A stretch of 64,000 bases of DNA from Blasia pusilla. Taxonomy: Eukaryota. The notes under the pieces are model-generated. The model made no database searches, was not told the DNA's origin, and saw only the letters and a list, made by a program, of their open reading frames with translations. Of this stretch, positions 9,272 through 58,424 are shown one piece after another. A program made the position numbers and the translations under genes. The first letter of the stretch is position 1. Each line of letters starts with the position of its first letter. The DNA lies in the NCBI GenBank assembly GCA_050084515.1, contig CM114271.1, positions 38,006,001 through 38,070,000 on the forward strand. The letters are read 5' to 3'.

Positions 9272-10547
9272 TGTCGTGTCGAGAAATCTTTCTTCGAGCA
9301 AGGGCGGGCCTTCTAGCTGCGGTAGATGCGGTCGATGCAAGGTGAACTCTCTAATAAGTTCTCCTTTTTCAATACAAAATTATGATGTACACTCTCCATT
9401 CTCTCACGACAGGTATCACAAATGGAAGTGCCGAGGCGATCACTTCTTCGTAACATCGGACCCCGAAATTCCTAACTATAAAATCCCTATAAACTATTTT
9501 ACGTTTGTACACGAGGAAGATAGCACAACTAGTGTTAAACCCTACTTGACCACGCCTATTGACATCCATGGATCGCTATATAAGGACATACAAAGTACAA
9601 TCCCATGTCCTTCCATATGTGACGATAGGAAGAATCACCGAGTTGGAGATTGCATGACCTGGTTCATGAACGCCTCCCCAAAGTGATAAACTAAATAGCG
9701 AGTGAACCAGTGCCTATCTACAAAGAGTACCTTGACATGGTAAGGATTGAGGAAAGGAAAGTCGGGCACAGCTCGTGCTCCACCCCTATCCATGCTTGAC
9801 ACACATTCTCTACTCTCCTCAAGAATGGGTTTTGGCGGAGTTATTCTCCCAAGAGGGGTAATCCACTCTCATTGGGAAAGTAACAAGCCAAAACATCCGC
9901 TATTTTAGTATGACTAAACTCCTCTACGGTGACAAACCTCTCATGCCCCCCATACACACACACCACACTCTAGAAACCTCTCGAAGAATAGACCATGATC
10001 AAATTACTCTCCCAAGAGGGGTGATCCACTCTCATTGGAAGAGCAAGCAATCCCAAAGCCATACACTCAAGAGAGACACGAGAGACTCAAGATGTGGAAT
10101 AGAAGGTGATGAACCCTTGAAGGTCCCTCCTCTTTATATACTCACAAGGGATCCACAAGAGTACGAAATAGAGCTTATCTTATCTTGTGCCACATGGCTT
10201 CCTCTCAAGGCTTAGCCAATCACATTTTGACACAAGTAGATTTCCTCTTATCTCTTCCAAAATATCCTCTTTTACCCACATGATATTTTCCAAATTACCC
10301 CAACTAACCTAGCCACCAACCAAGACTACTTTTGCTTTTCATTAAAGCAACTACTTTACTTTTATAAAGTCATCTTTTATTTATTACCTCCTTTTCCTAA
10401 AGTTGGGCCCGCATAAAAGAGGCGCCATAAAGAGGTTGAAACATAAGAATCTCCTTTTTCTAAGCCAATTTACTTAATACTAATGAAACTCTATCTAACA
10501 CTTAATGACGAAGGAGTTTACACACTGGTTGATTTTACTATCGGACA
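9272..10547 (-). mobile_element. 5' LTR (~1.28 kb) of a truncated LTR retrotransposon
   Basis: TGTC...GACA ends and nearly identical to 54404-55671. Followed on the minus strand by a PBS and gag. Confidence 0.9.
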
Positions 10548-11660: not shown

Positions 11661-11798
11661 GAGCTCTTCTTGTAGACTCCGGTTCCGCACTCGCCCAGCC
11701 ATTTTTTCTGTGGTTCAATCCTAACTTCAGTTGTCGTTTGAGTCTCCTTGGCTCGTGGAGTCTCGGCTGTGCTTGAGCTACACTCTCTGAGCCTCTAC

Positions 11799-13395
11799 AT
11801 GGCTAAGAGACAGCGAACTATGAATGAGATGCTACACAAGGAAGTTAGTCAAGACTTTGCAGAGGAGAACAGTAGGTCAAGATCATCGGATGGGAGAGAA
11901 GGGGAAAAATCGAATACTCCTCCTATAAGTCAGAGTGAGAAAAACAGATTGGCTTGGAAGGATGTTTGGTATACTTTGTTTGATTGGATAGAATTTCATG
12001 TAGATTCTGGTCGAATTTTTTGCAAAGTTCGTAGACAAGGTAAGGGGAAAAGCTCCTTTGCTAGGGATGGTGCCATTAATTGTAAGGTTTCGGCCTTCAC
12101 AGATCATGGTAAGTCGAATGAGCACATGAAGCTTGCATGGGCTGCGAATGTGGGGAGCAGATCCATGGCCAAGGCTATAGCCACTACAAATCGGACTTGT
12201 GATCTCGCACTTTTGACTCTGTTCAAATGTGCATATTTCGTTGCAAAGGAAGCCTTGCCATTTTCAAAGTTCTCAAATCTGTGTAAGTTATTGATTTCTG
12301 TGAATGCACCTATAACCCGCGACTTGTACCAAGATGAAAAAAGTTGTGCTAATATGTGTTATTATTTAGCCAGGTTCTTCTCAAGAGGAACCTTTCTAAA
12401 GTGCAACAATCTCCTTTCTTTGGGATAATGATTGACGAGTCCACAGATATATCTGTCACTCGACACCTTGTTGTATTTGCAACTTACTTAGATGAGGGAC
12501 AAGTAGAGAGTTGTTTTATAGGATTGCTACCATATCCAGAGAAATGTTCGAATGCAATCACTAACAATTTGTTGGAGTTGATAAAGGATTCAGGACTTGA
12601 GGGATCAAAACTGGTTGCCTTTGGATGTGATGGAGCTTTTACTATGGTAGGAAGCCAAAACGGAGTAGCATCTCAGCTGAAACATAAGTTAAATCCTTTT
12701 ATGTTGTCTGTGCATTGTGTGGCGCATAGGACAAATCTCGCTGTTTTAACAGCAGCAAAAGGTGTAGGGTGTAAGGAAATATCTATAGAAGTAGATTCCA
12801 TCTTGAATGCAGTAGCTGGATATTTTAGAAGGTCGTCGAAGAGGAAGTGTGGTCTTGCAACTTTGCAAGAGAAGTTGAACGATTCTCAGAAAGTGATGAA
12901 GAGGTACCACAAGATTCGCTGGTTGTCACGTTGGCAGGCTGTTACTACTTTATGTGACTCATTGGAATTTGTCCTTGCATATTTCAGAGATATCTCACCC
13001 TCGGAAGATAATGGCAATGCTGCAAATTTGTATAACAAACTCAGATCATTTCAGATGATCTATCAGTTGTACTTTTTGGCAGATATTTTGTTTCTTCTTG
13101 CTAACTTGAGTAAGATGTTCCAATATAAGTTTGTAGATGTTAGTACCATAGGTAGTATAGTGACTTCTGAAATAGCTTCCATAACAATGAATTTTGTAAT
13201 GGAGAACCCTGATCTGAATGCCTCCACTTTCTCTGAAGAAAGTGGTTATCACATTCTACCAGACTTTGGTCCTCCAGGGGGTTATTTGAAACGTTTACAA
13301 TCTGAGATTAGGGGCAGAAAGTTCCACAGCATAGAAATGTTGAGGAATCGGACAGGAAAGGATCTAGAGGCTGCCTTGTTGTTTCAAAAGAATTT
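11799..13395 (+). mobile_element. hAT-superfamily (ZNF862-like) transposase, frameshifted and 3'-truncated
   Basis: N-terminal W..FDW..IFCK...H...EH zinc finger, GIMIDESTDIS, GCDGA, HCVAHR (CxxH), and RW. Frameshift near 12356-12380. Cut at a (TA)n run before the dimerisation domain. Confidence 0.9.
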
Positions 13396-13536
13396 TATAT
13401 ATATATATATATATATGTCCCAAACTAGTGGACAAAAACGGACAAAATTTTGAGAGAAGGTTTTAGGGGGAGGAATGTTTTTGGAATTTGTGTTGAAGCA
13501 TGATTAATTTCATGCACGGCACAGGATGTACGCTAG
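13396..13536 (+). mobile_element. (TA)n microsatellite followed by a possible mini-Helitron 3' end
   Basis: (TA)10 at 13396-13416. A degenerate hairpin catgcacggcacagg is followed by CTAG|T at 13533-13537. Confidence 0.3.
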
Positions 13537-14783: not shown

Positions 14784-14998
14784 TGTCGTGCGCATACATA
14801 TCGCTACACAACATACATCGCTCGTCACATCTACACCACACAACACCGATCTTCCCCACACACGGGTCGATCCACACATGTACAAAAATCAACTCATACA
14901 TATATATGGAGATCACACAACTCTGGGGAAGATCGGTGTTGTGTGGTGTAGATGTGACGAGCGATGTATGTTGTGTAGCGATATATATGCGCACGACA
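14784..14998. repeat. 215-bp foldback with 75-bp inverted arms related to the Gypsy-PHD terminus
   Basis: Arms 14784-14858 and 14924-14998 match at 74/75 nt, with ends TGTCGTGCGCAT...ATGCGCACGACA. The outer ~45 nt match 58381-58424. No TSD. Confidence 0.9.
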
Positions 14999-17138: not shown

Positions 17139-18501
17139 TGGCTTCTTTAGTGGGATCATGTGATGAGAAAGGCCACTAGGCTTTTGCTAGTGTTAATGTT
17201 TGGGGGGAGATGTAAATGAGGTTGTTTCTAGTATTTTTGAAATTTTAATCTATTTTAGGGGTTTCTCTCACTCACCCAATGATTCTCCCTTTTCTTTATT
17301 TCTCCCTTTATGTTTGTCAAGGGTTCCCATCTTTATTCACGAAGCAAAAGCCACGAGACCTTTCATGCACTTCCTCACAAAAGCACGAAACATTGCTATT
17401 TCATGATATCCGACTTTAATGCCAGTTGGTTCTGAATCCGAGTCCATGGAAGCTAATCTTGGGTCTTCGACTCGTACGACCCACTGTTAGCCACATGAGT
17501 TGATTACCGGGCTTCTCGGCATAACGTAGGCCATGATCAAAATTGCTTAATGATCACCACAGGAACCCCCACCACGACTGACTCTGATGGCGACTAAACT
17601 GAAGTGGAGAGTACTGTTGCCCTATAGCAACCGATTCTCCACCCCAAGAATCGGCCAAAGGATATAAGCGGGGGATGTGAATTCATCCGAAGGCAGATGC
17701 ATCCGCCGCATCGGCAAGACGGGAGTGTACAGGAAATTTTTTTTGATGAGTAGATCGACTCTTTTCAATGCTTGCTAGAGTATGCACCGACCGGTATGTG
17801 TTCGAACGATCATGAAAAGAGTACAGATCCTGTGGAAACTGTCCTCCGCCTGAACTAGATTTTCGTCCCCGCCCTAAACTCGTTGTCTGGATCTCTGAGC
17901 TTTACAACAGGAGTTGGCAGTAGGTGAAATAGCAGCGATTAGATTAGATTAGGTCGTGAGCTTCGAGGGATCTCTCTTAAACCCAACTTCGTCTTTAGTC
18001 GCAACTCTGAATTTAGATGCTAATTAAAACCTCGAAATCAGATATTACCTGTGGATGTGCTGTTCGAAGCAGGTTTACATCGACAATTCTGGTGCTGAGG
18101 ATCGGATACGTAGATCTATCTGGTGACAGGACGTACTGGGCTCATCTACCCTGGGGGCAGCAGGAAGAATCAAGGGCATGACGATTGTCCAGTAGCTCTG
18201 TACACGATCGATGAGTGATCAGCTCGAGTAGCAATCGGGGAGGTACATCGCCACACACTAGTTTTGTAGGCAGTCGTGATGGAGCGCTTCGGTGGTTGAC
18301 TCATTTTATGGGGACGGAGCAGTCATGGTCGAGTCCCACCACCGTGTGCTAACCAAGTCGAGATTTTCGGAGCAGAAGGTGAAATCAGAGGTTGAAGGGC
18401 AGTTTCTTAGTTCCATCGACAAAGATACGACTCGTGAATTGTCCCATCCTCAATCTTTAATTTTTCCGCACAACTTCAGAAATATTGTAAAGCAGACCGG
18501 G

Positions 18502-20037
18502 ATGAGGGCTATTTGGAACAATCGGCAGTTGCGAAGCCTCGTGCTGGTGATCCTCGCATCCATACTGGAGAAGGCAGATATGGCAGCTGTGCCTGCTGTG
18601 TACAGAGAAATTGGCCTGGCATTACACGCATCCCCATCAAAATTGGGCAGTTTCTCTTTGCTGAAGTCGCTTGCACAGGCGCTCTGCTCCCCTTTTGCTG
18701 GATACCTGGCCAAGCGCTACAAGCGTACCCGAGTTATCGCCGGTGGGGCATTTGTGTCCACCATAGCTACATTTTGTGTGGGAATGTCCAACACGTTTGC
18801 TCAAATTGCGCTCTCCATGGCAGTAAGCGCCGTAGGGATTGCTGTGACATGGCCTGCAATCCAGTCGCTCATAGCTGATGCAACTGATGATAGCAATCGA
18901 GGCATGACTTTCGGATGGCTACAGCTGACAGCCCATGCCGGATCGTTCTTCGGGTGCTTCGTGGCGGTTCTGCTGGCCGGCACCTCCGTGATGGGAATCG
19001 AGGGGTGGAGAGTGTCATTCATCATCCTGTCAATTCTCAGCTTGCTCATTACCTGTTCACTATATTTCTTCGCAGATGATCCTGTTCCCCATGGTAACGT
19101 ACACACGTCGTTTGACCCGAGGGAAACGAAGAGATGTTACAAGGAAGATTTGAGGGAGCAGTTTCAAGATGCTAAGAGAGTGCTGAATGTCAGGACTTTC
19201 CAGATCATCGTTGCAGAGGCGGTGGTGGGAGCATTCGCATGGTCTACATTCTCCTTCACACCCATGTGGTTGGAGCTGATCGGATTCTCCCATGCGAAAA
19301 CAGCCACAATCATTGCTTTCTTCATAGTAGCGGGATCCCTGGGAGGCCTATTTGGAGGTTGGATGGGTGACAAAATGGCTGGTTGGCTTCCTGACTCTGG
19401 CAGGACGATCATCGCTCAAATGTCCACAGGTATTGCTGTTCCGTCCACCGCCGTCTTGCTCCTTCTGCTGCCCAATGATTCTTCCTATGGTCTGCTCCAT
19501 GGATCAGTCTTCTTCGTCACCGGGTTCTTCATCTCTTGGAATGTACCTTCGACTAACGCTCCGCTAATGGCGGAGGTTGTTCCCCAGCAATCCCGGACCA
19601 ATGTCTATGCCCTAGAGCGAACCTTTGCGAGTGTTATGGCTGCATTCGGTCCACCTGTTGTTGGCATTCTTTCTGAGCGTGTCTTTGGTTTCGTTCCCGT
19701 TCCCAAAGGATCCAGCCTCAAATTGAGCAAAGCAATTGATAGTCAAAATGCTTCGGCCTTGGCTAAAGCAATGTACACCTCTATGGGAGTTCCTTTCTTC
19801 ATCTGCTGCATCATATACGGTCTGCTGTACCGGTCATATCCCATGGATCGCGACCATGTCCGTGAGGAGGCTTACGTCGCAGAACTGCAGATGCAGTCGG
19901 GTGGAGATCTCGAGAAGAATCACGCTATCATTCGGGAAGACGATGAACTCGAGATGCGGAGCCATGATTCCGAGTGTGAACAGGATGAAACTGAGACGAT
20001 GCTTCCCAAAAAGCTCGGTGCAGAAACTCGTGAGTGA
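18502..20037 (+). CDS. Major facilitator superfamily transporter, UNE2/Spinster-like (511 aa from ATG 18502; alternative ATG at 18325)
   Basis: Uninterrupted ORF with about 12 hydrophobic segments and motifs AVYREIGLALHASPSKLG, PAIQSLIADATDDSNRGMTFGWL and AEVVPQQSRTNVYALE. A probable 5'UTR intron GT(18379)..AG(18479) favours ATG 18502. Confidence 0.9.
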   Translation: MRAIWNNRQLRSLVLVILASILEKADMAAVPAVYREIGLALHASPSKLGSFSLLKSLAQALCSPFAGYLAKRYKRTRVIAGGAFVSTIATFCVGMSNTFAQIALSMAVSAVGIAVTWPAIQSLIADATDDSNRGMTFGWLQLTAHAGSFFGCFVAVLLAGTSVMGIEGWRVSFIILSILSLLITCSLYFFADDPVPHGNVHTSFDPRETKRCYKEDLREQFQDAKRVLNVRTFQIIVAEAVVGAFAWSTFSFTPMWLELIGFSHAKTATIIAFFIVAGSLGGLFGGWMGDKMAGWLPDSGRTIIAQMSTGIAVPSTAVLLLLLPNDSSYGLLHGSVFFVTGFFISWNVPSTNAPLMAEVVPQQSRTNVYALERTFASVMAAFGPPVVGILSERVFGFVPVPKGSSLKLSKAIDSQNASALAKAMYTSMGVPFFICCIIYGLLYRSYPMDRDHVREEAYVAELQMQSGGDLEKNHAIIREDDELEMRSHDSECEQDETETMLPKKLGAETRE

Positions 20038-21201: not shown

Positions 21202-22626
21202 CACATGCCCGGCCCACGTAAATTACTCCGCACTTGGCGTTCCGATCGTTCATCGTCCATCTTCCTACTCCTCTGAAAGTACTCCGGGGTTATAACTTCA
21301 AATCCCTTTTTTCGAATTGGGATGAGAAGGAAAGACTCCCAGATCATCTGATTCATACTTTACAGTTCTAGAAGTAAGCACGGGAAAATACATGTTCGAG
21401 CAAGAAAGCAACTTCAGATGCAATTTGGTGGGGCAACTTGCACCTCGACAACGAATGCGAAAAGCGATTCTATAAACGAAACTGAAGTTTCTGGCTTAGC
21501 GCCTCGGGTTTTCATATTCGTTGTTAAATCAGGAGAAAAGGGATTCGAATAAACCCTAACAGGTGCCGGCGATTGGCTCTGGATCTTCAGCTAACATACT
21601 GGTCCTCCCTTGATTGCAGCTAAGTTTGTGTTCCGGTGAAACTTGTAAGTAGAAAAACTAATGATGAACGTAATAAGATCATAGATAACATGTGCAATGA
21701 GCATTTAGATAAAGGGACAAGATGGGCATCTGATTGGAGTGAATGTAAGGAAAATTCAAGGTATATTGATTTAATGCAGATACTTTGAAATAAGTGAAAC
21801 ATGGTATGAGTGAAGCGATCATGCAAGAATCACACAATGGAGCGTGAAAAGTTATGCTCATATGGTTTTGCCTAATCTATAATACCAGCGTGCAACTCTA
21901 ACTTTGGATTACTATACACTACGAAAGTAGTTTCCTTAACTAAAGCTTTGAGGTATGATGTAAAATTGGTTAAATTGAATTGTGGAAAGCCTATACTAAG
22001 CCTATATAAGCTAGCTAAGTGAATGGAAACGTCGAATATATTCAATCGCTGGCATCGACTTGAATAAGGAATGGAAGAAATTGGGATGTTAGTACGTCAC
22101 CATGGTAAGATCAATGCTCAATTGTAAATGTATTGTATCAGTAGTGAAGAATAAGCATGTATCTTAATATAACCTCTAAGCGTATCTCCTCTTGCCTAGG
22201 GAACTTGCAAACACATTTGGCTAAAATCTAACAACAAGAACAAAAATCACTTCAAAGTCAAAGTCTAGTAGGATTGGTACAATATGGGGTTCATCCGAGG
22301 AAGACGTGTGGAACTTTGGGAGCTGTGGACAAGATTCATCTTTGAGGCTTTAGTAGATGTGAGGTCTATGATTATGTGGAGTGGAAGGTGGAACTCATGA
22401 GAAGAGTGACGAATTATAATCCTAAGAGGCTATCAAGGACCAGCCTCCGCTAGAGGCTATGCCGAAAAGTTTGTTCCCTCAGGTATGAGTGAGGGTTTTC
22501 TATTTGAAGTCAACTTGCTTGTAGCGAAGGGCCTCCTTCTATCTACTTGACAAAAATAACAAGGAGTTATGAATCTAAATGTTCACTATGAGTAAACAAC
22601 ATACCACATCCATTGTGTCATGCATC

Positions 22627-23452
22627 CCAGAGAAGGGTATTCGGGTGTTGGATCTCTTTGGAGGGATTAGACTGGGTTAGCTGCTCTTTTGCAGGCAAGA
22701 GTACGCGTGCAGTGGTACCTGTATGTGGAGATTGATGATGTTGCGAGGCGCGCTTCACTTCACCATGTGGCGCAGTTATACCTCCATTTTACGGATTTGT
22801 TGTCTGCTTCCGCTGTCCAGGGATATTACTTTACCGAGGGATATTTCATTGTTGGGGGCGCAAGACTTGGAGCAGGTAGGGGCCATAAATTTGGTCATTT
22901 ATGGTTGGCCGTGTCAAGGCCAGTCGGGTGCTGGACGGGGTAGTGGATTAGGTGACTGGCAGTCCAGGTTGTTTTGGGAGATGATGCGGATCTTGATTTA
23001 CAAAGAGAGAATCCTATTGACTGTGGTCAATAGGAGTGGCATGCCACGGGCAACCTTTCCCACATTTGTGAGTTTTCCGGCTTCCTATGCATTCAAGGAG
23101 GCCGGACGTGGCTTGGTTTGGGATGACCAGGTACAGAGGTTGGTGGAGCCTAACGCCGATGAGCGAGAGCAAGCGATGGGATTCCCCATAGGAGTGACGA
23201 CAGTACCTTCACTATCAGAGGCATCACGATATCATATCTGGGGTCAGGCGATAGATCCGAACTGCTTGACATGGATTTTGAGCTTCAGAGTATTTGAGTA
23301 GCGTCGTTTGCGGATGCGACAGATCACAACTACTGCGTCGGTGAGCCCCATGCCTACCAACACGGTTGAGGCAGTGGCTGGGGCTGAGACCTGAGGAGAT
23401 TGACATACCATGGATGATTGGAAGAGACACCCTTGGACTTCTTGGGATGTTT
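22627..23452 (+). pseudogene. Degenerate C5 cytosine DNA methyltransferase domain, probably TE-borne
   Basis: Motif I IRVLDLFGGI/TGL, motif II YVEID, motif IV GWPCQG, motif IX EREQAMGFP and motif X GQAID. Two frameshifts (~22670, ~22825). The ENV/RxR segment is missing (deletion near 23000). Stop at 23299. No introns seen. Confidence 0.8.
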
Positions 23453-24007
23453 TGCAGATACGCTAGTGTGAGAAAACTGAAAGTGATGAAATCACTCAAA
23501 TCTTTACAAAAGCTTAGAGATACAAAGTGTCCTAGTCCGTCCATGCGCTCATAGAAGAGCTTTGATGGGACCTAAACATGGAGATAACTTGACATACGAG
23601 AATGCGCTACCACTCCGAATCCCGACTATTTCATTACTCGAGATACTAGGGTTTTTTTATCTTTTTTTCTTTGTTTCTACTAAAACCACCTACGTCATAT
23701 TACTATGACTCCTTCGACGTCTAAGTCGGAACCATCAATCTAGGCTTCTCCTCATACAAGGGGGCCGATCAGATTAATGGTGCTTAGAGAAGTGGATGTT
23801 GAGAATCCAACAGCCAAGAGATGATAGCCACAACATCAAGTGTAGTTCCGGGTACTGCACATGGAGATCAAATTTTGCAGTGGCTGCAGGAGAGCGATCG
23901 AGTTCTATTGTCCGAGATGGGGTTGCACCATAGCAACCACCTACACCCGCGTCGGAGAGTCCTACTGTAGTCACGATGGAGACTTGGGAGCCAGACATAG
24001 GCCCTAA

Positions 24008-33414: not shown

Positions 33415-36400
33415 CTCCATTGAGTTCTTGATACAAGTGAAAATGCCACGCCCATCTTCAACGCCCTCGACCCTCTTGGCGTCGCTTTTTTGTACCCTCC
33501 ACCCTCCTCATGGGGTATAGTGACATGGAGAGGGCTTTGATTCAGAGTAGGAGCCAAGACTTGGTTGGAGTAGGACTAGTGGAGATGTTGCATGGAGAAT
33601 ATGCATTTTCCATTGTCATGCCCACCAAGAAGAATGTGCATGGCATCGTGACGGATAGGCGGATGTGTGGAGATTATATATCCCAACAACATTAAAAATA
33701 CGACCTATCAATCATTTAGAAGATGAACTAGTCTTTACTAAAGGGTATTGATAGATATGCCATGCCCACTCTTGAGGAGATCTTTGATGTCATAAAAACC
33801 AGGACAATTCTTCAGGTGTGGAGGAGGCGATTGGGATGCAAAGGTCTTGATTCATTGGATTCATTGAGTTCTTGAGTGACACGCCCATACCATGACATGG
33901 AGAGGGCTTTGATTTAGGAGCCAAGACTTGCCAATCTGATTGGAGGATATGCATTTTCCATTGTCATGCCCACCAAGAAGATAGCATTTTGGGGCATCAA
34001 TCCTCACGAGAAGGATTGTTTGTACTAGTGGCGATTCTTACCATTCGGGTTAAAGATCGTCCCGACTAAGTTTTAGAGGGTCATGGATAGGATCTTGGCA
34101 GGTCTGGATTTTGCTAGGTGTTATATTGATGACATCGTAGTCTTTAGCGCCACGGTTGAGGAGCATGAGCGATATCTAGAGGATATGTTTCGACCATTAC
34201 AGTTACATGGGTTGGAGCCACATCCAGGAAAGTGCAAGTTCTTCTATGACTAGATTGAGTACTTGGGTCATACGATATACCCATGTGGCCTTGGTGTACA
34301 AAAGATAGAGCTAGAGGCTATTTCACGTATTCCATGCTCTAGAGATGTGATTCGAGTTCGTGCATTCATGGGATTGGCAAACTTCTATCGACGGTACGTC
34401 AAGGGTTTTAGTTCGATTGCAAAGCCACTAACCTTGCTGACCAAGGTGGATCAGAAGTGGCACTGGGAGGATGAGCAAGAGAGAACATTTCAGCTGCTCA
34501 AGGACAGATTGACGTCCGTGCCCATATTGAGGAGATTGATCAGGGGGAGTCCTTTCTAGTTGCATACCAATTGGAGCATGTTGGGGCTTGGAGCCATGCT
34601 CATCCAACATGACGATGATGGTAGAGAGTTCGCGGTGGCTTACGCTAGTCGCTCGAACAACGCTGCAGAGGCAAAGTATAACTTGTATGAGGGTGAGTGC
34701 TTGGCTATGATGTGGGTTTTTGTACATTTCAGGTGTTATTTATTCGGAAACCATCATTACTGATCATCAACCACTTAAGTGGTTGATGGAGTCTGACAAG
34801 CTTACAAGGAAGCTTGCGAGGTGGGCCCTTTTGTTGTAGGAGTATGACTTCCTGGTGGTGCATAGACCATGGACGCTCAACCAAGATACTGATGGTTTGA
34901 GCCATAACCTATGCTTGAGTCAGCGAGATGCGACTGGAGCTTGTTGGCATGGTGAGAGCGATGAGGAGTTGGTGCCAAGATGGCGCGCGTTAGGATATTT
35001 GGGCTTGTTGGCTGTGGAGAGCCTGATTGTTGAGACTTCAATGGCGAGGTCTGATGAAGAGTCCTTAGATCCAGAGTCCGGTGAGGAGACAATAGATGGC
35101 CGAGACATTCACAATGATGGAGTGGTTTGCAGTACCTGTATACTAGAAGCATCGCGAGCACATTGGGTGCTACAGAGCGGGATCGGATCCTACAGCAAGC
35201 CAGACAGTTCTGGTGGGAGGGGACACATGTGTTGCGAGTTTGGGGGGCTGGTAGAGTGCGTGTAGTGCCTCATCCTTTGTAGAGAGCACGTGTAGTGCAT
35301 CATGCCCACAAGGAGTTGGGTCATTTTGGAGTGAAACGGACGTACAACTTGCTTCAGCTACAATATTGGTGGCAAGACATGTAGACTATTTTTCAACATT
35401 TTGTTGCGAGATACATGTTGTGTGATCGAGTCCAAGCATCATTCAATGCTCCGACTCCACAGTTGTATCCACTTCCAATCATGGATTTAGGTTAAAGATG
35501 GAGTTTGGATTTTGCAGGACCTTTGCCTTTAACGAAGCGCCATAGTCGTTATGTGTTGGGGATGGTCGAGCACTTCTTGAAGTGGATAGAGTTGGTTGCA
35601 TTTCTTGACAAAGCGAGTGAGGGAGTAGCATATACCTTCCTAGATCGAGTGTTAAGTCATTACGGCGCACCAGCTGAGGTGTTGACAGACTAGGGTACAG
35701 AGTTTTGTGGGGAGTTTCAGGCTTTGTGTGATCAGGTGCTGATTGACCACCGCACCACTTCGCAAGATCATCCTGAGGTGGATGGATTAGCGAAGAGGGT
35801 TATGTTGACGGTGCAGAGAAGATTATGCAAGCATGGCTTGCAAAGAGATCATCTTGGAGATTGGGACCTCCAGTTGCTGTGGTTGGCGATCGGATACAGA
35901 TTCAGCAGATAAGCATCCTTAGTGTCTTTCTCAGCATACTTGCTATTTTATGGTCGAGAGCCAGATTTACCTGCGGCCATTCATCAAGATGTTGGTGAGG
36001 TGTTGAACCTTGATGACCTTGATGTATGGATGCGAGCATGTTCTCTGACGGCTGAGTTATTTCGGAGAGTGATGCCCATGGCGTTTGAGAACTTGGCCAT
36101 TGCGTAGCATCTAGATACATTGAGGTATGCGACTATTTGAGGAGGTGGTTATCAACCTACTATTTGGAGGTTTCATTAGGGAGACTATGTATACTTGCAG
36201 CAAATGGCACCCACGACGTTGGATGCAACTCGAGGACGCACCATCTTAAGAGTGCGTGAGATTTTGCCATCTGGTGTTCTCTTATTCGAGGGACGGGATG
36301 GTATGGTTTGGAAGGACCATGTGCGTAACTATGCGTCATGTCACCTTCCTAACATTGACAGTATAGTTGATCCGAGCTTAGCAGTAGTTCTTGCAAGCTT

Positions 36401-36545
36401 GTGATGTATGTTGTGTGGTTCCGCTCGTGGTGTAGCCACTATGGTCGTCTGTGATGGATGTTTGAGAGGATGGCATATGGCAGGTCTGACGCCACCTCTC
36501 ACCAGGGTTCCTCATAGACGATGGATGTGTCCCAAATGTACATAG
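33415..36545 (+). mobile_element. Ty3/Gypsy pol (RT-RNaseH-integrase-PHD), degenerate
   Basis: RRMCGDY, LPFGLK, CYIDDIVV, RAFMGLANFYRRYV, VAYASRS..EGECLA, AHKELGHFG..C..C, DFAGPLP, TD*GTEF, and a C-terminal PHD (36405-36539). Confidence 0.92.
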
Positions 36546-36711
36546 AGTAGATAGTTCTAGACTCCAACTTGTGTCTGTGACATGGATGATAAGAAGGTGA
36601 CTAACGATGGGGCTACCTGAGCACCCGACCTTTTTGCTCTTAGCGTTCCAAAGATGTATGTCATGGTAAGTAGGGAAAGATGACTATTTGGAGTAAGAGG
36701 GACCTAACCAT

Positions 36712-37489
36712 GAGCTAGGGGGGTGATTGGAGATATTTTTTTACTTCTTGTCTCGTTGTTTGGATACCATGAGTTAGCATGGGATCGTACGTGTTTGTGT
36801 GTATGTTTGGCGAAAGCGATATATGTTGTGTAGCGATGTGTATGCGCATGACAGTTGTCACAAATTTTTAGGATAGATCAGAGAATTGGGTAGAGCGCCT
36901 TTGTGAGTAGAGAAGGATAGACTTAGGAGGTCGAGGATGACCTCCTAAGGTCTTGGGAAACTTGAGAGAACAGGTTTCCCCTTCGTTTCAGCTCATTTGG
37001 AGCCATATCGAGAAATTTATTTTTTTGGGTAAGTTTCCATATTTGGTAGAGTTTACTTTCCACTTTGGCAAGTGGTCCTTGACCCGCTATAGTAGGTCAA
37101 GAGCCAAGGAGGTGACCTGCAAGCATAGGTTACCAAGGAGAGAGCTTGGGAGAGGGAAGGGGGTATACCTCCAAGAGAGAGAGGTTGAGAGCTCATTCTT
37201 TCTTTGTTGAACCTCTTGGCATGAGGCGGCGGAGCTATGATCCCTTGCCTTGTGAGTGTAATCTAAGCCTCTCATTAGGAGACTGGGTTTGGTTTGATAT
37301 TGAGAGCGACATGTGAGGATGCACACATTTTAGAGCTATGGTATTGACAGAGATTGGATCTACTTTATTTAATTGGAGATATTTTGGTACTTCTTGTCTC
37401 GTTGTTTGGATACCATGAGTTAGCATGGGATCGTGTGTGTTTGTATTTATGTTTGGCGACAACGATGTATGTTGTGTAGCGATATATAT
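36712..37489 (+). mobile_element. PPT and atypical 3' terminal region (A-GT-TGTC-B-A') of Gypsy-PHD copy 1
   Basis: AGGGGGG PPT. Repeat A at 36726-36853 ends GACA, TGTCAC starts at 36856, and A' at 37372-37489 has lost its last ~10 nt. Confidence 0.8.
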
Positions 37490-44891: not shown

Positions 44892-46944
44892 TCAAAAATT
44901 TATAGATTCAACCAACGAGTCATCGTAGTCTACTACTTTCCCCTCTAATTCAATCCTAAGAACTGCATCCAAATGGCTTGTCATTAATCTATTACGATTT
45001 TTAATCTTCATCATATTTTGCATAGAGAAAGCTCTTTTACAAATAGTTGTGCTCACACATTTTACCCTACAAATATTGGCTAAAATGAGGAGGTTGGAGA
45101 ACTTACATTGCAGGGATGGGCTCCAACTTACCATAGCCCAAAAATCCCCAGAGTTTCTTTTTCCACTTTATGGTGGCCATGAGTTTAAATGATTGAAACT
45201 CTTGTTTCACAACTCTTGGATTCACTAGTCTAAGAGCACGTTGCAATTGACTTCTTAAGGCCAAATCCCTTCCAAAAGTTGCACAAACATCATCCACATA
45301 CTTACAACCCCAACTATTTAGTCATACTTACCTTGAAGGCAAAAACACTCTAAGCAAATGCTTTTGAAACAATAGACCGGTCTCTAAATCCTTTCCACTC
45401 CTATCCCCTATCATTTCAATGTTATGGTACTTTCTGCCCCTAACCTCAAATTGTATACGTGCAGAGAAGGTAGAAACATGAAGATGAGGATATTCCATCA
45501 CAAAGTTCATTGTAATAGAAGCTATTTCCAAATTCAAAATACTACCAATATTACTAACCTCTAAAAACTTGTATTTTATTACTCAAGTTAGCAAGAAGAA
45601 ACAAGATATTTTCCTAAAAGTACAATTGGTAAATCATTTGAAACGATCTCTCTTTGCTATACATATTGGCATCATCACCATCATATTTAGAGGGGAAAAT
45701 ATCCCTGAAATATGTAAGCACTGATTCCAATCAGTCACACAAAGTAGTGACGGCTTGCCAACGTGACAATTGATGAATTTTTTTATACCTCTTCACAACT
45801 CTTCGAGAGTCATTCAACTTCTCTTGCAAAGTCGCGAGACCACACTTCTTCTTTGAAGACCTTCTGAAATATGTGGCTACAACATTCAAGATCACATCTA
45901 CTTCTGTAGATATATCTTTACAACATATTACCCCTTTGGATGTTAGAGGAGCAAGGTTAGTCCTATGTGTGACACAATGTATAGAGAGCATGAAAGATTC
46001 ACCTTCTGCTTTAGTTGAGATGCAACTCCATTTTGACTCTCCACCATGGCGGAGGTTCCGTTAGAACCAAAGGCCAACATCTTTGCTTTATCTAGTCTTG
46101 AATCTTTTAGCAACTAAAAAAGATTACTAGTAATTGCATTTGAACATTTCTCTAGACATTGTAACAATCCTATGAATGAACTCTCAACTTGGTCCTTGTC
46201 CCAATACTTTACAAACACAAAAAGATGTGTTGTAATAGATATATTAGTAGACTCGTCAATCATGATCCCAAAGAACGTAGACTGTTGAACTTTACAAAGG
46301 GTGCTTCTAAGAAGAACTTGGGTAAGTTCTTCTTAGAAGCACCCTTTGTAGGGCTCAAAAGTTGCGCACATATGAGCGCAACTTTTGTCATCATGATACA
46401 GGTCTCGAGTGAAAGGCGCATGTACTGAAACCAACAAGTTACATAGACTTGGAAATTTGGTAAATGGTAAGGCTTCCTTTGCAATAAAATATGCGCTTTT
46501 GAACAAAGTCAAAAGAGCTAGATCATAAGTTTGATTTGTGGTGGCTCTGTCCTTGGCCATGGATCTGTTTTCAACATTGGCGGCCCATGCTTACTTCATG
46601 TGCTCATTTCACTTACCATGATCTATGAAGGCTAGTTAGAGATCATGCACCTTACAGTTTCTTGCACCATCCCTAGCAAAAGAGCTTTTCCCCTTACCTT
46701 GCCTACAGACTTTGCAAAATATCCTACAAGTCGTAGTCTTTACATGAAACTCTATCCAATCAAACAAGGTATACCATACATCCTTCCATGCTGATTGATT
46801 CTTCTCAATTTGATTTCATGAATAAGGATTTGACTTCTCCACTTCCCTCCCCTCCGATGACCTTGACCTGATATTGTCCTTTGAAAATTCGGGACTAACA
46901 TCCTTAGATAACATCTCATTTATAGTTCTCTTTCTCTTAGCCAT
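44892..46944 (-). mobile_element. Second hAT transposase copy, heavily degenerate, retaining the hATC dimerisation domain
   Basis: Collinear with 11799-13395 (MAKRKRT, HCVTHR, RWQAVTTLCD) and adds VSTTICKRAFSMQNMMKIKNRNRL. Confidence 0.88.
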
Positions 46945-47765
46945 ATAGAGGCTACGAGAGCTTGGGACTATGATGTAAATGCTAATAGAAGGTGCAAATC
47001 ACTATATTGTAGGTTTAGCTTCTACAACTACGAAATTCAAAGGAGAAGTAAGCCGACTTAAAATGAAACCTGAAACGGACAGTAAGTGCGATTAAGAAAG
47101 TTTCAAAACACAAGGCATAAGACACTAAGACCAAGACACGGTCAACTCTTCCTTATAGAGACTTGAGCTTTTGGCCAAAGTCTTGTGAATGGAACCTAAA
47201 TGCTTGAAATTCTGAACTCTTGGAGGCATGCTTGTGAAAGCTACGTTGAGTGTGAGTGCGAGACTCTACAACAATGGACAACTGCGATTCTCCACATTGG
47301 ACATCGAGAGACCACAGAAGAGCTAGTTACAACGAGCGAACGACCCTTAGCCAAGCGTGGCGCGTAGTTAGCTTCGAGCTGTGACAACTAAGGAGTAGCG
47401 AGGAGTGATCAACAAGAACCGAGTAGCAACAACATGATAGCACTAGCCTACATTCAAGAGATAGTAATGACCACTTTGAGATTGCAGAGCACTAATATAT
47501 TACAAAAGAGCAGCGGATTGCAAAGCAATAATAGATTCAAGAGTAGCAGCAACGGCGTGAGTTGAAACCAATGTTGTGTAGGGAAAGTTTTGAATCCCCA
47601 AGGGGAAAGCATAACGAGTTGGGTATCGAAAACCTAAGAGTTTCCAATTGAGAACTTGCGAGGTAAGAACAGAGAACCTTTCAAATCTCTTGAGTCTAGG
47701 GCAAAGACACAAGGAGCCCGCGAGTTGAGAGGCGAGCTGAGAGTCTATTGAAGCACAACGAAAAT

Positions 47766-53864: not shown

Positions 53865-56800
53865 GTTGGGAAACCTCTGGATAGTACGTCGAGAACCGCC
53901 TCTCCAAATAGTCGCATACCTCAACGTATCTCGATGTTGCGCGATCGCCAAGTTCTCAAGCGCCATGGGCATCACTCTCTGAAACAACTCAGCCCTCTCA
54001 GAACATGCTCCCATCCATACATCAGGGTCATTAAGGTTCAACACCTCACTAGTATCTCAACGAATGGCCGAAGGTAAATCTGCTCACGGCCATAAATCAA
54101 CAAATACGATGAGAAAGACGCTAAGGATGCCTGCTTGCTGAATATGTATCCTATCGCCCACCATGGCAACTAAAGGTCCCAATCAACTAGGTGACCTCTC
54201 TACAAGCCATACCTGTGTAGTCCTCTCTTCACCATCTGCACAACCCGCTCTGCTAGTCTATCCGCCTCAAGATGATCTCGTGAAGTAGTGCGGTGGTTGA
54301 TTAGTGCCTGATCACACAAGGCCTGGAACTCTGTACCCTGGTCTGTCAACACCTCAGTTGGTGCACCGTAATGACTCAACACTTGATCTAGGAAGGCATA
54401 CGCTGTCGTGTCGAGAATCTTTCTTCGAGCAAGGGCGGGCCTTCTAGCTGCGGTAGATGCGGTCGATGCAAGGTGAACTCTCTAATAAGTTCTCCTTTTT
54501 CAATACAAAATTATGATGTACACTCTCCATTCTCTCACGACAGGTATCACAAATGGAAGTGCCGAGGCGATCACTTCTTCGTAACATCGGACCGAAATTC
54601 CTAACTATAAAATCCTATAAACTATTTTACGTTTGTACACGAGGAAGATAGCACAACTAGTGTTAAACCCTACTTGACCAGGCCTATTGACATCCATGGA
54701 TCGCTATATAAGGACATACAAAGTACAATCCCATGTCCTTCCATATGTGACGATAGGAAGAATCACCGGAGTTGGAGATTGCATGACCTGGTTCATGAAC
54801 GCCTCCCCAAAGTGATAAACTAAATAGCGAGTGAACCAGTGCCTATCTACAAAGAGTACCTTGACATGGTAAGGATTGAGGAAAGGAAAGTCGGGCACAG
54901 CTCGTGCTCCACCCCTATCCATGCTTGACACACATTCTCTACTCTCCTCAAGAATGGGTTTTGGCGGAGTTATTCTCCCAAGAGGGATAATCCACTCTCA
55001 TTGGGAAGTAACAAGCCAAAACTTCCGCTATTTTAGTATGACTAAACTCCTCTACGGTGACAAACCTCTCCCCCCACACACACACACCACACTCTAGAAA
55101 TCTCTCAAAGAATAGACCATAGTCAAGTTACTCTCCCAAGAGGGGTGATCCACTCTCATTGGAAGAGCAAGCAATCCCAAAGCCACACACTCAAGAGAGA
55201 CACGAGAGACTCAAGATGTGGAATAGAAGGTGATGAACCCTTGAAGGTCCCTCCTCTTTATATACTCACAAGGGATCCACAAGAGTACGAAATAGAGCTT
55301 ATCTTATCTTGTGCCACATGGCTTCCTCTCAAGGCTTAGCCAATCACATTTTGACACAAGTAGATTTCCTCTTATCTCTTCCAAAATATCCTCTTTTACC
55401 CACATGATATTTTCCAAATTACCCCAACTAACCTAGCCACCAACCAAGACTACTTTTGCTTTTCATTAAAGCAACTACTTTACTTTTATAAAGTCATCTT
55501 TTATTTATTACCTCCTTTTCCTAAAGTTGGGCCCGCATAAAAGAGGCGCCATAAAGAGGTTTAAACATAAGAATCTCCTTTTTCTAAGCCAATTTACTTA
55601 ATACTAATGAAACTCTATCTAACACTTAATGACGAAGGAGTTTACACACTGGTTGATTTTACTATACGACAACGCTACACCCTCACTCGCTTTGTCACGC
55701 AATGCAACCAACTCTATCCACTTCGAGAAGTGCTCGACCATCACCAACACATAACGACTATGGCGCTCCGTCAAAGGCAAAGGTCCTACAAAATCCAAAC
55801 TCCATCCGTAACCTAAACCCATGATCAGAAGTGGATGCAACTATGGAGTTGGAGCATTAAACAATGCTCGGACTCGATCACATACCATGCATCTGGCAAC
55901 AAACTGTTGAACGTCAGTGTGTATGCCTCGCCACCAATATTGAATAGGGAGCGGAGCAAGCTATATGTCCACTTCACTCCAAAATGATCCAACTCCTTAT
56001 GGGCATGACGCACCAAACATGCTCTTTGCAAAGGATGAGGCACTACACGCACTCAACCATCCTCCCACACTCGCAACAGATGTGTGCCCTCCCACCGGAA
56101 CTGTCTGGCTCACTGTAGGATCCGATCCCGCTCTCTAGCACCCACTATGCTCACGTTGCTGCCAGTACGTAGCTACTCCAAGACCGCTCCATCGTCCTGA
56201 ATGTCTCGGCCACCTGTTGTCTCCTTATCGACCTCTGGATCTAAGGACTCTCCATCAGACCTCACCATTGAAGTCTCAGAAATGTGGCTCTCCATAGCCA
56301 ACAAGCCCAAATAGGCTGAAGCATATATGCCATCTTGATACCAACTCTTCGTCACTCTCACCATGCCAACGAGCTCGAGTCGCATCTTGCTGACTCGGGC
56401 ATGGGTTACGGCTCAAACCATCTGCATCCTGGTTGAGCGTCCCAGGTCTATGCGCCACCTGGAAGTCATACTCCAACAACAAAAGAGCCCATCTTGCAAG
56501 CTTCCTTATAAGCTTGTCGGACTCCATCAACCACTTAAGTGGTTGATGATGAATAATGATGGTAAAGGGATTGCCGAGTAGATAACATCTGAAATGTGCG
56601 ACAGCCCACACTACAGCCAAGCACTCACCCTCATACGAGCTATACTTTGCCTCTGCATCATTTTTCGAGCGACTAGCATAAGCCACCACAAACTCTCTAC
56701 CATCATCGTCATGCTGGGTAAGCACGGCTCCAAGCCCCAACATGCTCCAATCGATATGCGACTGGAAAGGACGCCCCTTGATCAGTCTCCTCAATATGGG

Positions 56801-56876
56801 CGTAGATGTCAATCTGTCCTTGAGCATCTAAAATGCTCTCTCTTGCTCATCCCCCCAGTGCCACTCCTGATCCACT
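53865..56876 (-). mobile_element. Gypsy-PHD family pol (RNaseH-integrase), interrupted by a solo LTR
   Basis: VAYASRSKNDAEAKYSSYEGECLA, HAHKELDHFG, WSLDFVGPLP, DKASEGVA|YAFLDQVLSHYGAP and TDQGTEF. Collinear with 34440-36175. Confidence 0.9.
54404..55671 (-). mobile_element. Solo LTR with a 4-bp TSD (ACGC)
   Basis: TGTCGT...ACGACA ends, with ACGC at 54400-54403 and 55672-55675. Removing it restores the integrase frame. Nearly identical to 9272-10547. Confidence 0.93.
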
Positions 56877-57468
56877 TTATGGCCGAGAGCCAGATTTACC
56901 TGCGGCCATTCGTCGAGATGTTGGTGAGGTGCTGGACCTTGATGACCCAGATGTATGGATGCGAGCATGTTCTCAGAGGGCTGAGTTATTTTGGAGAGTG
57001 ATGCCCATGGCGTTCAAGAACTTGGCGATTGCGCAGCATTGGGATACGTTGAGGTATGCGACTATTCGGGGTGGTGGTTATCAACCAACTATCCGGAGGT
57101 TTCATCAGGGAGATTATGTCTACTTGCAATGAGCGGCACCGCGGCGTTGGATGTTTGCAGGCGTACTATCTTGAGTGCGTGATGTTTTGCCATCCGGTGT
57201 TCTCTTGCTGGAGGGACGCGATGGTATGGTATGGAAGGACCATGTGCGTAATTGTGCGCCATGTCACCTTCCTAACATTGATGGTACAGTAGATCCGAGC
57301 TTAGCAGTAGTTCCTGCAAGCTTGCGTTGTATGTTGTGTGATTCTGCCCGTGGTGCGGCCACGATGCTAGTTTGTGATGGATGTTCGAGAGGTTGGCATA
57401 TGGTATGTTTGACGCCACCTCTCACTAGGGTTCCTTGGGGACGATGGATGTGTCCTAGATGTACATAG
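56877..57468 (+). mobile_element. Gypsy integrase C-terminus with an intact PHD finger
   Basis: YGREPDLP..GDYVYLQ, then CMLCDSARGAATMLVCDGCSRGWHMVCLTPPLTRVPWGRWMCPRC (C4HC3 plus the conserved W, 57328-57462). Confidence 0.9.
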
Positions 57469-57645
57469 GGGAGATACTAGGTAGGTTTCGATTCCGACTT
57501 TTTCTATGACATAGATGATAGGAAGGCGACTAACGATGGGGCCACATGAGCACGCGGCCTTTCTGCTCTTAGCGTCCTAGAGATGTATGTCGTGGTAGGT
57601 AAGGATAGATAGATATCTGGAGTTAGAGGGATCTAACCACCAACT

Positions 57646-58424
57646 AGGGGGGCGATTGGAGATATTTTGGTACTTCTTGCCCCTGTGTTTGGATGCCATG
57701 AGTTAGCATGGGATCGTGCATATTTGTGTATGTGTTCGGTGACAACGATGTATGTTGTGTAGCGATGTGTATGCGTACGACAGCTGTCACGTCTTTTAGG
57801 ATAGATCGGTGAGATCTAGTAGAGCGCCTTCGTGAGTAGTGGAGGACATGCTCAATAGGTTGAGGATGACCTGCTGAGGCCCCGGGAAACCTGAGAGAGC
57901 AGGTTTCCCCTTCGTTTCGGCTCATTTGGAGCCATATTGAGGAACTCACTATTTTAGGTTAGTACCATTTTGAGTATATGATTGACTTTCTATTTTTGAT
58001 AAGTGGCCCTTGATCTCCTACATCAGGTCAAGAGCCAAGGAGGTGACTTGGGAGAATATGTTACCATGGAGAGAGCTTGGGTGAGGGGAGTGGTATACCT
58101 CAAGGAGAGAGAGCTTGAGAGCTCATTCTCTCTTTGTTGAACCTTTTGGCATGAGGCGGCGGAGCTATGGTCCCTTGCCTTGTGAGTGTAAGCCAAGCCT
58201 CTCATTAGGAGAGTGAGTTTGGTTTGACATGAGGGAGAGTGCACACCTTGAGAGCTATGGTGTGAGATGGTGTAGAGAGAGATTGGATCTTAATTTATTG
58301 GAGATATTTTGGTACTTCTCGCCTCTGTGTTTGGATGCCATGAGTTAGCATGGGATCGTGCGTGTTTGTGTGTGTGTTCGGTGACAGCGATGTATGTTGT
58401 GTAGCGATGAGTATGCGCACGACA
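57646..58424 (+). mobile_element. PPT and atypical 3' terminal region (A-GC-TGTC-B-A') of Gypsy-PHD copy 2
   Basis: AGGGGGG at 57646-57652, A at 57655-57782, TGTCAC at 57785, and A' at 58297-58424 ending CGACA. Confidence 0.85.

Follow-up and report, generated by a model that had tools for sequence, protein, structure and literature searches.

Several described systems resemble, each in some of its features, the retrotransposon family analysed here in Blasia pusilla. KnitGypsy-Dnmt3 of Klebsormidium nitens (de Mendoza et al. 2018, PMC5890265), for which a figure legend gives DIRS-like repeats and Gypsy domains, shares with the Blasia element a Gypsy pol with a C5 methyltransferase and a DIRS-like repeat order. 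The accessible part of that account describes no TSD, PBS, PPT, junction or mechanism (PMC5890265), and the Blasia families carry a C-terminal PHD finger. Elements of the Ngaro/PAT type and SymbioDIRS are likewise arranged as 5' repeat, ORFs, 3' repeat, 5' repeat and 3' repeat and carry the end-to-end junction as an internal copy, but they encode a tyrosine recombinase, whereas the Blasia element has a DDE integrase, TG..CA ends, a 4-bp target site duplication (TSD), a PPT and a PBS. Tyrosine-recombinase DIRS/Ngaro elements are not known to make a TSD.

Other likenesses concern single steps of the replication cycle. Tf1, Tj1 and Tcn1 are described as using, in place of a tRNA, a PBS complementary to the 5' end of their own RNA, as the Blasia element appears to do (PMC4600332, PMC6317226). 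Unlike the Blasia element, they have two full LTRs ending at the cDNA ends, and Tcn1 belongs to the chromoviruses. The 2-LTR junctions reported for HIV-1 and foamy virus offer the same classes of scars and an internal cut at a palindromic CA..TG sequence (PMC5618025, PMC1905944, PMC1180852). As described there, however, the end join itself forms the palindrome and circles arise as a by-product, whereas in Blasia the two would be separate sites and the joined form the normal one. In the IS3 family, a short spacer separates the abutted ends at the junction. These copy-out/paste-in elements insert, by means of a DDE enzyme, from a circle with abutted ends (PMC3219604, PMC7780238). They are nevertheless DNA transposons whose transposase makes the junction in each cycle, whereas the corresponding site of the Blasia element appears to be inherited. 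REM1 is a green-lineage Gypsy element with a PHD finger. The same is true of Gypsy-7a_cRei of Chlamydomonas, whose legend marks LTR subparts and a left LTR without the last 8 bp of the right one (PMC9940879). We found no account of a mechanism for the layout described below in the largely open-access literature; the repeat layout seems to have been remarked once, without mechanism, in the Klebsormidium legend (PMC5890265), and the evidence on scars at the junction, on self-priming, on the asymmetry and on RNA comes from the present analysis.

Two copies in the window and the coding content of their family

The window, the 64-kb stretch of DNA under analysis, contains two dead copies of an abundant plant retrotransposon, the 5' end of neither of which lies inside it. 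No tRNA genes were found within the window. The terminal repeats are built from two units, A and B, and the two A units of the 3' module are referred to as A1 and A2. In copy 2, on the forward strand, the module opens with the PPT (57646-57654), which from its sequence would be the left boundary of the LTR that reverse transcription produces. This is followed by A1 (57655-57782, 128 bp), the left part of U3, whose GACA end is the putative A-side integrase end; by the spacer GC (57783-57784); by B2 (57785-58296), comprising the remaining U3, R and U5 and corresponding to the entire 5' repeat of full-length copies; and by A2 (58297-58424), probably the moved left cDNA end, which now forms the 3' terminus ..CACGACA. 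A1 meets B2 in J (57779-57788), a palindromic internal att-like site, GACA-GC-TGTC, in which both outer ends abut across a 2-bp spacer, while the B-A joint (58290-58303) is the candidate join of the right and left cDNA ends. Within B2, a TATA-like box at 58094 is followed 25 bp downstream by a predicted self-primer at 58122-58137 (together 58094-58137), which is the exact complement of the 16 nt directly after the 5' B. The 3' module of copy 1 (36717-37489, forward strand) consists of the PPT (36717-36725), A1 (36726-36853), the spacer GT (36854-36855), B (36856-37370), a single extra A at the joint (37371) and a clipped A2 (37372-37489) without its last ~10 bp. The coordinates of both modules thus confirm the order PPT-A-GACA.NN.TGTC-B-A that the original prediction had reported for the two copies.

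Upstream of the module, copy 2 retains a broken end of pol (the C-terminal part of the integrase and the PHD finger) with the 3' untranslated part (56874-57645, forward strand), and an RNase H-integrase part that is inverted (53871-56878, reverse strand) and split by an unrelated 1.27-kb repeat (54404-55671). The breakpoints of the inversion (53870-57103) bear a 228-bp inverted duplication. The 1.27-kb repeat occurs again at 9272-10547 (98% alike); the copy inside copy 2 is bounded by TGTCG..CGACA, is flanked by a 4-bp ACGC duplication and, judging from its matching terminal letters, may be a solo unit belonging to a different family of the same clade. The pol remnant of copy 1 (33521-36716, forward strand) includes RT, RNase H, integrase and PHD regions with many stops and frameshifts. 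A further family fragment with the C5 methyltransferase region (22601-24007, forward strand) is 77-84% identical to a full copy and may not belong to copy 1. At 14785-14998 two A units of sister family 2, one complete (138 bp) and one partial, are fused head-to-head, with both GACA integrase-type ends outward and without a TSD; this palindrome was also considered as a MITE family, which was ruled out because its matches are A units of the sister family. The window also holds an intronless major-facilitator transporter ORF surrounded by repeats (18280-20037, 585 aa, MFS_1 E 9e-42) and two remnants of a hAT-like element (11742-13453 and 45356-46960; zf-C17orf113, DUF4371).

Domain analysis of family copies identified RVT_1, RT_RNaseH, Integrase_H2C2, rve and PHD (PF00628) in this order, and a motif search found the D-D-E motifs complete in 7 of 17 copies. 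The C5 methyltransferase was located upstream of RT by tblastn of proteins P0030 and P0096 on full copies; its PF00145 match is weak in those copies (E 0.02) and better in the window fragment (E 1e-6). P0030, a K. nitens protein that may not be the published element, gives a collinear alignment with a full copy that spans protease, methyltransferase (E 3e-47), RT-RH and integrase. Look-alikes of ORF1 were Gag/protease proteins (0.89-0.90), which is a lead, and the relative P0006 has Ty3-G Gag-Pol as its top match. Ranked by similarity, a liverwort protein (70%) and a K. nitens protein (47%) were retrieved, and the nearest named relatives come from a liverwort, Klebsormidium, Closterium, Volvox and Tetraselmis. 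No chromodomain was found in the element. A search of 76 ORF pieces from three copies (L034, 37 of 49 ORFs; L061, 35 of 66; L043, 4) gave no match to a tyrosine recombinase (Phage_integrase); broken frames lower the sensitivity of this search. The element shares with Ty3/Gypsy the order PR-RT-RH-INT, the DDE integrase, TG..CA ends, TSD and the positions of PBS and PPT, and it lacks a pair of equal, complete LTRs with the cDNA ends at their outer edges. It is a Gypsy-Dnmt3/PHD retrotransposon with a DDE integrase. The resemblance to DIRS/Ngaro elements on a DDE-integrase element, which had been proposed at the outset, holds for the split-repeat order; a recombinase is absent from the pieces searched and a 4-bp TSD is present.

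Layout and termini across the family

The layout B-internal-PPT-A-GC-B-A is real and family-wide, and the 5' end consists of B only. All of the best 30 genome matches show this layout and come to a sharp stop at ..CACGACA; they include the window's own copy and a pair with a common flank that appears to represent a single duplicated locus. Exact patterns occur genome-wide at 2036 PPT-A sites and 1643 B-A joints, and reversed-pattern controls for PPT-A, B-A and the scarred joints gave 0 matches genome-wide. Among the first 30 of the 2036 PPT-A sites, A-NN-B is present in 26, with a second A in 24 of those 26; the remaining sites comprise one shortened A-NN-B, one A-NN-B-PBS, three in which A runs into flanking DNA and one clipped A. 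The 5' ends of six PPT-A-flank copies, which could represent a one-LTR form B-internal-A, fell inside the fetched windows in 0 of 6 cases. One search pattern matched only a variant, and its 26 matches are a sample rather than a count. A metagenome scan returned two loci, both without termini.

Both ends were recovered for 15 of 25 assembled family-1 loci (in the other 10 there was no 5' B within range), and all 15 start with B alone and finish with A. Between the two 5' starts that the original prediction had left to be decided, TGGAGAT and TGTCAC, these elements consistently have TGTCAC (one reading TATCAC). The clean TSDs that it had asked about also exist, but on B-only 5' ends and not on an A-B-A repeat: the duplication is 4 bp long, exact in 13 of the 15 and with one mismatch in 2. 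Uninterrupted copies are ~10.0-10.4 kb long. Two sister families carry the same PPT-A-GC-B-A module with the core CGACA-GC-TGTCA, while B cannot be aligned among the three families; five B-only left ends were found in 8 windows of the sister families, with a 4-bp TSD that is exact in four and has one mismatch in one. Two loci (L086:1509-2548 and L114:863-1650, in element orientation) contain an intact PPT-A-J-B-PBS run, that is, an uncut LTR between both primers, as expected from a tandem dimer or a one-LTR junction. At another locus (L245), B is cut just upstream of the predicted transcription start and fused to A. For annotation, the layout implies that LTR finders of the kind that require two equal TG..CA repeats and a TSD (PMC6317226) will miss or mis-bound this clade.

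Reverse transcription landmarks, internal site and joint

The PBS, which comprises the 16 nt immediately 3' of the 5' B, is the exact complement of a stretch of B located ~25 nt past the TATA-like box. The same geometry recurs in all three families with unrelated letters and with exact complementarity of 16, 14 and 9-11 nt, and we infer from this co-variation a PBS of the Tf1-type self-priming kind. In predicted folds the primer and PBS bases are paired at 13/13 and 10/14 positions in two copies; against this, one young copy with a PBS mismatch gave 0/13. In B of all three families there is also an inverted repeat between the TATA box and the self-primer (58104-58137 in the window), again with unrelated letters. 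With the PPT at its left and the self-priming PBS at its right, the LTR made by reverse transcriptase would be A-GC-B, so that the inserted form would be a circular permutation of it, and ordinary synthesis would give a linear DNA with A-GC-B at each end.

Sense transcription was observed along the entire length of one full copy (L061:1-10000) in three RNA runs of one study, chosen by species label, with a peak toward the 3' end. Read depth there is 108-217 at positions 482-567, inside B2, falls to 37-40 near the end of B2 and is 10-20 in A2; no sharp start or end site is listed within the mapped stretch, the start region of the 5' B lying outside it. The reads are mostly 90-95% alike and come from many copies of the family, and the data therefore suggest, rather than map, an RNA end within B2. 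Some RNA covers A2, which counts against such an end.

The two A units of an element resemble each other. Over 117 bp, A1 and A2 are 94.0% identical in copy 2 and 90.6% in copy 1, in comparison with 85.5-88.0% between copies, and the diagnostic variants that the original prediction had described as common to both A units within a copy are present. Across the family, 0 of 135 columns are position-specific, and minority letters of A1 recur in A2 of the same element in 112 of 286 cases versus 35.3 expected, about threefold chance. Pairwise identity of A1 and A2 is 95.2% within and 92.7% between elements. The signal is modest, which counts against it: an element's own A2 beats the mean of foreign A1 in 45 of 53 cases but the single best of them in no more than 2. 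It had been argued that the duplication is regenerated at replication in a manner that U3-R-U5 synthesis does not explain. Regeneration is supported, and the permuted order does require something beyond such synthesis; the identity of A1 and A2 does not, because ordinary synthesis on an A-GC-B LTR would copy both from A1.

J consists of the outer ends, TGTCAC.. and ..CACGACA, abutted across GC. It had been called circle-junction-like, a description that we do not retain: J is better read as an inherited internal att-like site than as the meeting point of the cDNA, and the end join would lie at the B-A joint. The two spacer letters are AC in 20, GC in 16, GT in 12, AT in 3 and other in 2 of 53 copies, and are most simply read as a single ancestral GC decayed by CHG methylation. 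Where B is cleanly lost, the spacer GC (or AC) stays with A in 7 of 8 loci, which is why we regard J as a probable internal integrase site. At these loci the end of one A is joined to the start of another, with the spacer kept in 4 of 4 cases in family 2 and 3 of 4 in family 1; such joins read GACA-GC-ATTGG, which indicates that the first A belongs to the unit. At three family-2 loci of this type the 5' B and a TSD are present, and one locus (L254, G000:C9:13202908-13203451) has three A units in a row with GC between them, an exact TSD and a B at its 5' end. Isolated A pieces with a terminal GC were also considered as released fragments, and this reading was rejected: the ranking had favoured G, an unbiased pattern gave GC in 2 of 18, and the upstream DNA was element interior in 5 of 10 examined. 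The substrates of integrases are recessed ends carrying 2-nt overhangs, and cutting both strands of J after CA would yield ends of this kind. There is in vitro precedent in the internal cut made by HIV integrase at a palindromic LTR-LTR junction (PMC1905944).

The B-A joint bears scars of variable kind. In the first 100 of the 1643 joints, read from the listing, 69 are standard, 24 have one extra base, 4 have a PBS piece, 1 has GA and 2 are shortened. Directed patterns recovered nested PBS pieces, 7-19 nt long, at 23 joints, of which 2 also hold PPT, and PPT pieces at 11 joints, one of which is common with the PBS-piece set; filler bases were also seen. One joint contains ~200 bp of pre-PPT DNA with the PPT, and three continue with letters of the primer complement and not of the PBS. 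Altogether 33 scarred joints fall into 12 within A-J-B-A modules, 12 in stand-alone B-A units and 9 unclear; the TSD of the 12 stand-alone units is exact in 6 and has one mismatch in 5. In 5 of 10 cases examined, broken internal DNA abuts the first base of a whole A unit; the pattern used selects an intact A start. HIV 2-LTR junctions are described as having the same classes, namely PBS, PPT, both, or deletions (PMC5618025). Since at least 33 joints retain PBS pieces, PPT pieces or both in the manner of those junctions, the scars strongly indicate that the B-A joint is a join of both cDNA ends. Against renewed joining, most joints have one identical, precise sequence, which plain inheritance predicts likewise. 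In a phylogeny of 52 copies, 11 changes are required to explain the 11 rows with the extra-A joint (shuffled mean 10.2), and all joint types together are slightly clustered (14 changes vs 16.1, with 11 of 200 shuffles as low); this tree, from which duplicates L127 and L023 were left out, is weak, with 8 of 49 branches well supported.

The two sides of the element are not treated alike. The mirror form B-A-J-B has 3 matches, none of them clean, versus 865 for the standard form; it is found at 0 of 24 B-PBS sites, and counting all PPT-A-flank copies as collapsed mirror forms would give at most 4 of the first 30 PPT-A sites. The left J lies 128-138 bp and the right J 370-510 bp from the cDNA end. 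Our preferred reading is that the cut may be coupled to the nearer end of the cDNA and that the ends would be joined within that complex or once the DNA has been inserted.

Proposed insertion in a circularly permuted form and its alternatives

We consider it quite probable that this Ty3/Gypsy element, a member of the Dnmt3/PHD clade of the green lineage, is inserted as a circular permutation. This scheme is read wholly from inserted copies, and the cleavage, the circles and the linear cDNA are all inferred. The RNA would start in the 5' B ~25 nt past the TATA box and mostly end in the 3' B, consistent with the RNA data. Its 5' end would prime the minus strand on the PBS as in Tf1, as the co-varying sequences suggest, and the PPT would prime the plus strand. 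Ordinary strand transfers would then give a linear [A-GC-B]-internal-[A-GC-B] with both A copies derived from A1. The ends of this cDNA, which are without TG..CA, would be joined end to end to create a new B-A joint at every insertion, the step strongly indicated by the scars. At the palindrome of the left LTR the integrase would make a staggered cut after CA on each strand, leaving two processed ends with GC overhangs, and insertion of these ends with a 4-bp duplication would produce B-internal-PPT-A-GC-B-A. Joining and cutting could occur either way round; we favour a cut of the left site on linear cDNA or in an end-tied complex, with end-joining there or after strand transfer.

The circle-precursor model of retroviral integration is reportedly that of Panganiban and Temin in 1984. 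Applied here, it would make a free 2-LTR circle obligatory: host end-joining closes the cDNA and the integrase opens one of two equivalent J sites. We regard this as a doubtful special case of the preferred scheme, and its probability is included in that of the scheme as a whole. A free circle would account for all of the junction scars, and it has biochemical precedent (PMC1905944). It could also release by double cut the stand-alone B-A units with TSD that make up 12 of the 33 scarred joints, but such units would arise as well from recombination between B1 and B2. Against it stands the mirror form, which a free circle predicts to be about as frequent as the standard insertion and which is seen 3 times versus 865. 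Because the mirror product is nearly absent, some unexplained asymmetry is required that a free symmetrical circle does not supply, and for the same reason cutting at the left site is favoured. That asymmetry could also come from a template jump, in which reverse transcriptase, extending the plus strand, switches from the right end of the minus strand to its left end and copies A a second time before the integrase cuts J. The product would be the same, with the join made by the polymerase rather than by ligation; the jump could tie the cut to the left LTR and would carry into the joint any primer and PPT not yet removed. The A-GC-A and A-GC-A-GC-A joins and the filler bases, however, resemble end-joining of released pieces, and the minus strand would still need sealing, so that we think this version unlikely.

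Inheritance of the joint would remove the need for either operation. If the RNA carried A1-J-B2-A2 and the ends were completed on an internal copy, as in split-repeat replication of the DIRS/Ngaro type, the B-A joint would be inherited and an internal cut unnecessary. The repeat order is indeed that described for SymbioDIRS, A-coding-B-A-B (PMC5890265), most joints are identical and some RNA runs over A2. Yet A-J-B is bounded precisely by PPT and PBS, the B-A joint retains pieces of PBS and PPT of many different lengths, the extra-A joint is unclustered on the tree and the RNA drops 5-10-fold before A2; TSDs are present, and a tyrosine recombinase was not found in the 76 ORF pieces. Replication of this type therefore appears improbable. 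The idea of an ordinary LTR, A-B-A or B-A, that was truncated at its 5' end or carries an ancient internal duplication retains hardly any credibility. The B-A unit does start with TG, end with CA and occur alone with a TSD in the manner of a solo LTR, but this account is refuted by the 5' ends: all 15 + 5 + 3 left ends are B only with the PBS directly after, A has no position-specific columns, and the layout is common to three families with different A and B.

Returning to insertion by an end join and an internal cut at the left LTR, we lean, with less assurance, towards a wider statement: in a green-lineage Gypsy clade extending from algae to liverworts, the ends made by reverse transcription may have become separated from the ends used by the integrase, such that every insertion needs an end join and a one-sided internal cut. 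To our knowledge, joined-end integration has long been debated for retroviruses and has been established as the normal path of no retroelement. The family bears on this old question of retrovirology, whether joined-end (2-LTR) DNA is a true integration precursor, since about 2000 PPT-A sites in one genome belong to an element that seems dependent on the end join and offers a defined 10-bp candidate substrate for integrase. If our reading is true, a Gypsy integrase acts like an IS3-type transposase on abutted ends, which would explain a layout that has hitherto only been remarked. The element would then be the first LTR retroelement with a 2-LTR junction in its normal integrated form, and its thousands of genomic copies would constitute a fossil library of cDNA ends.
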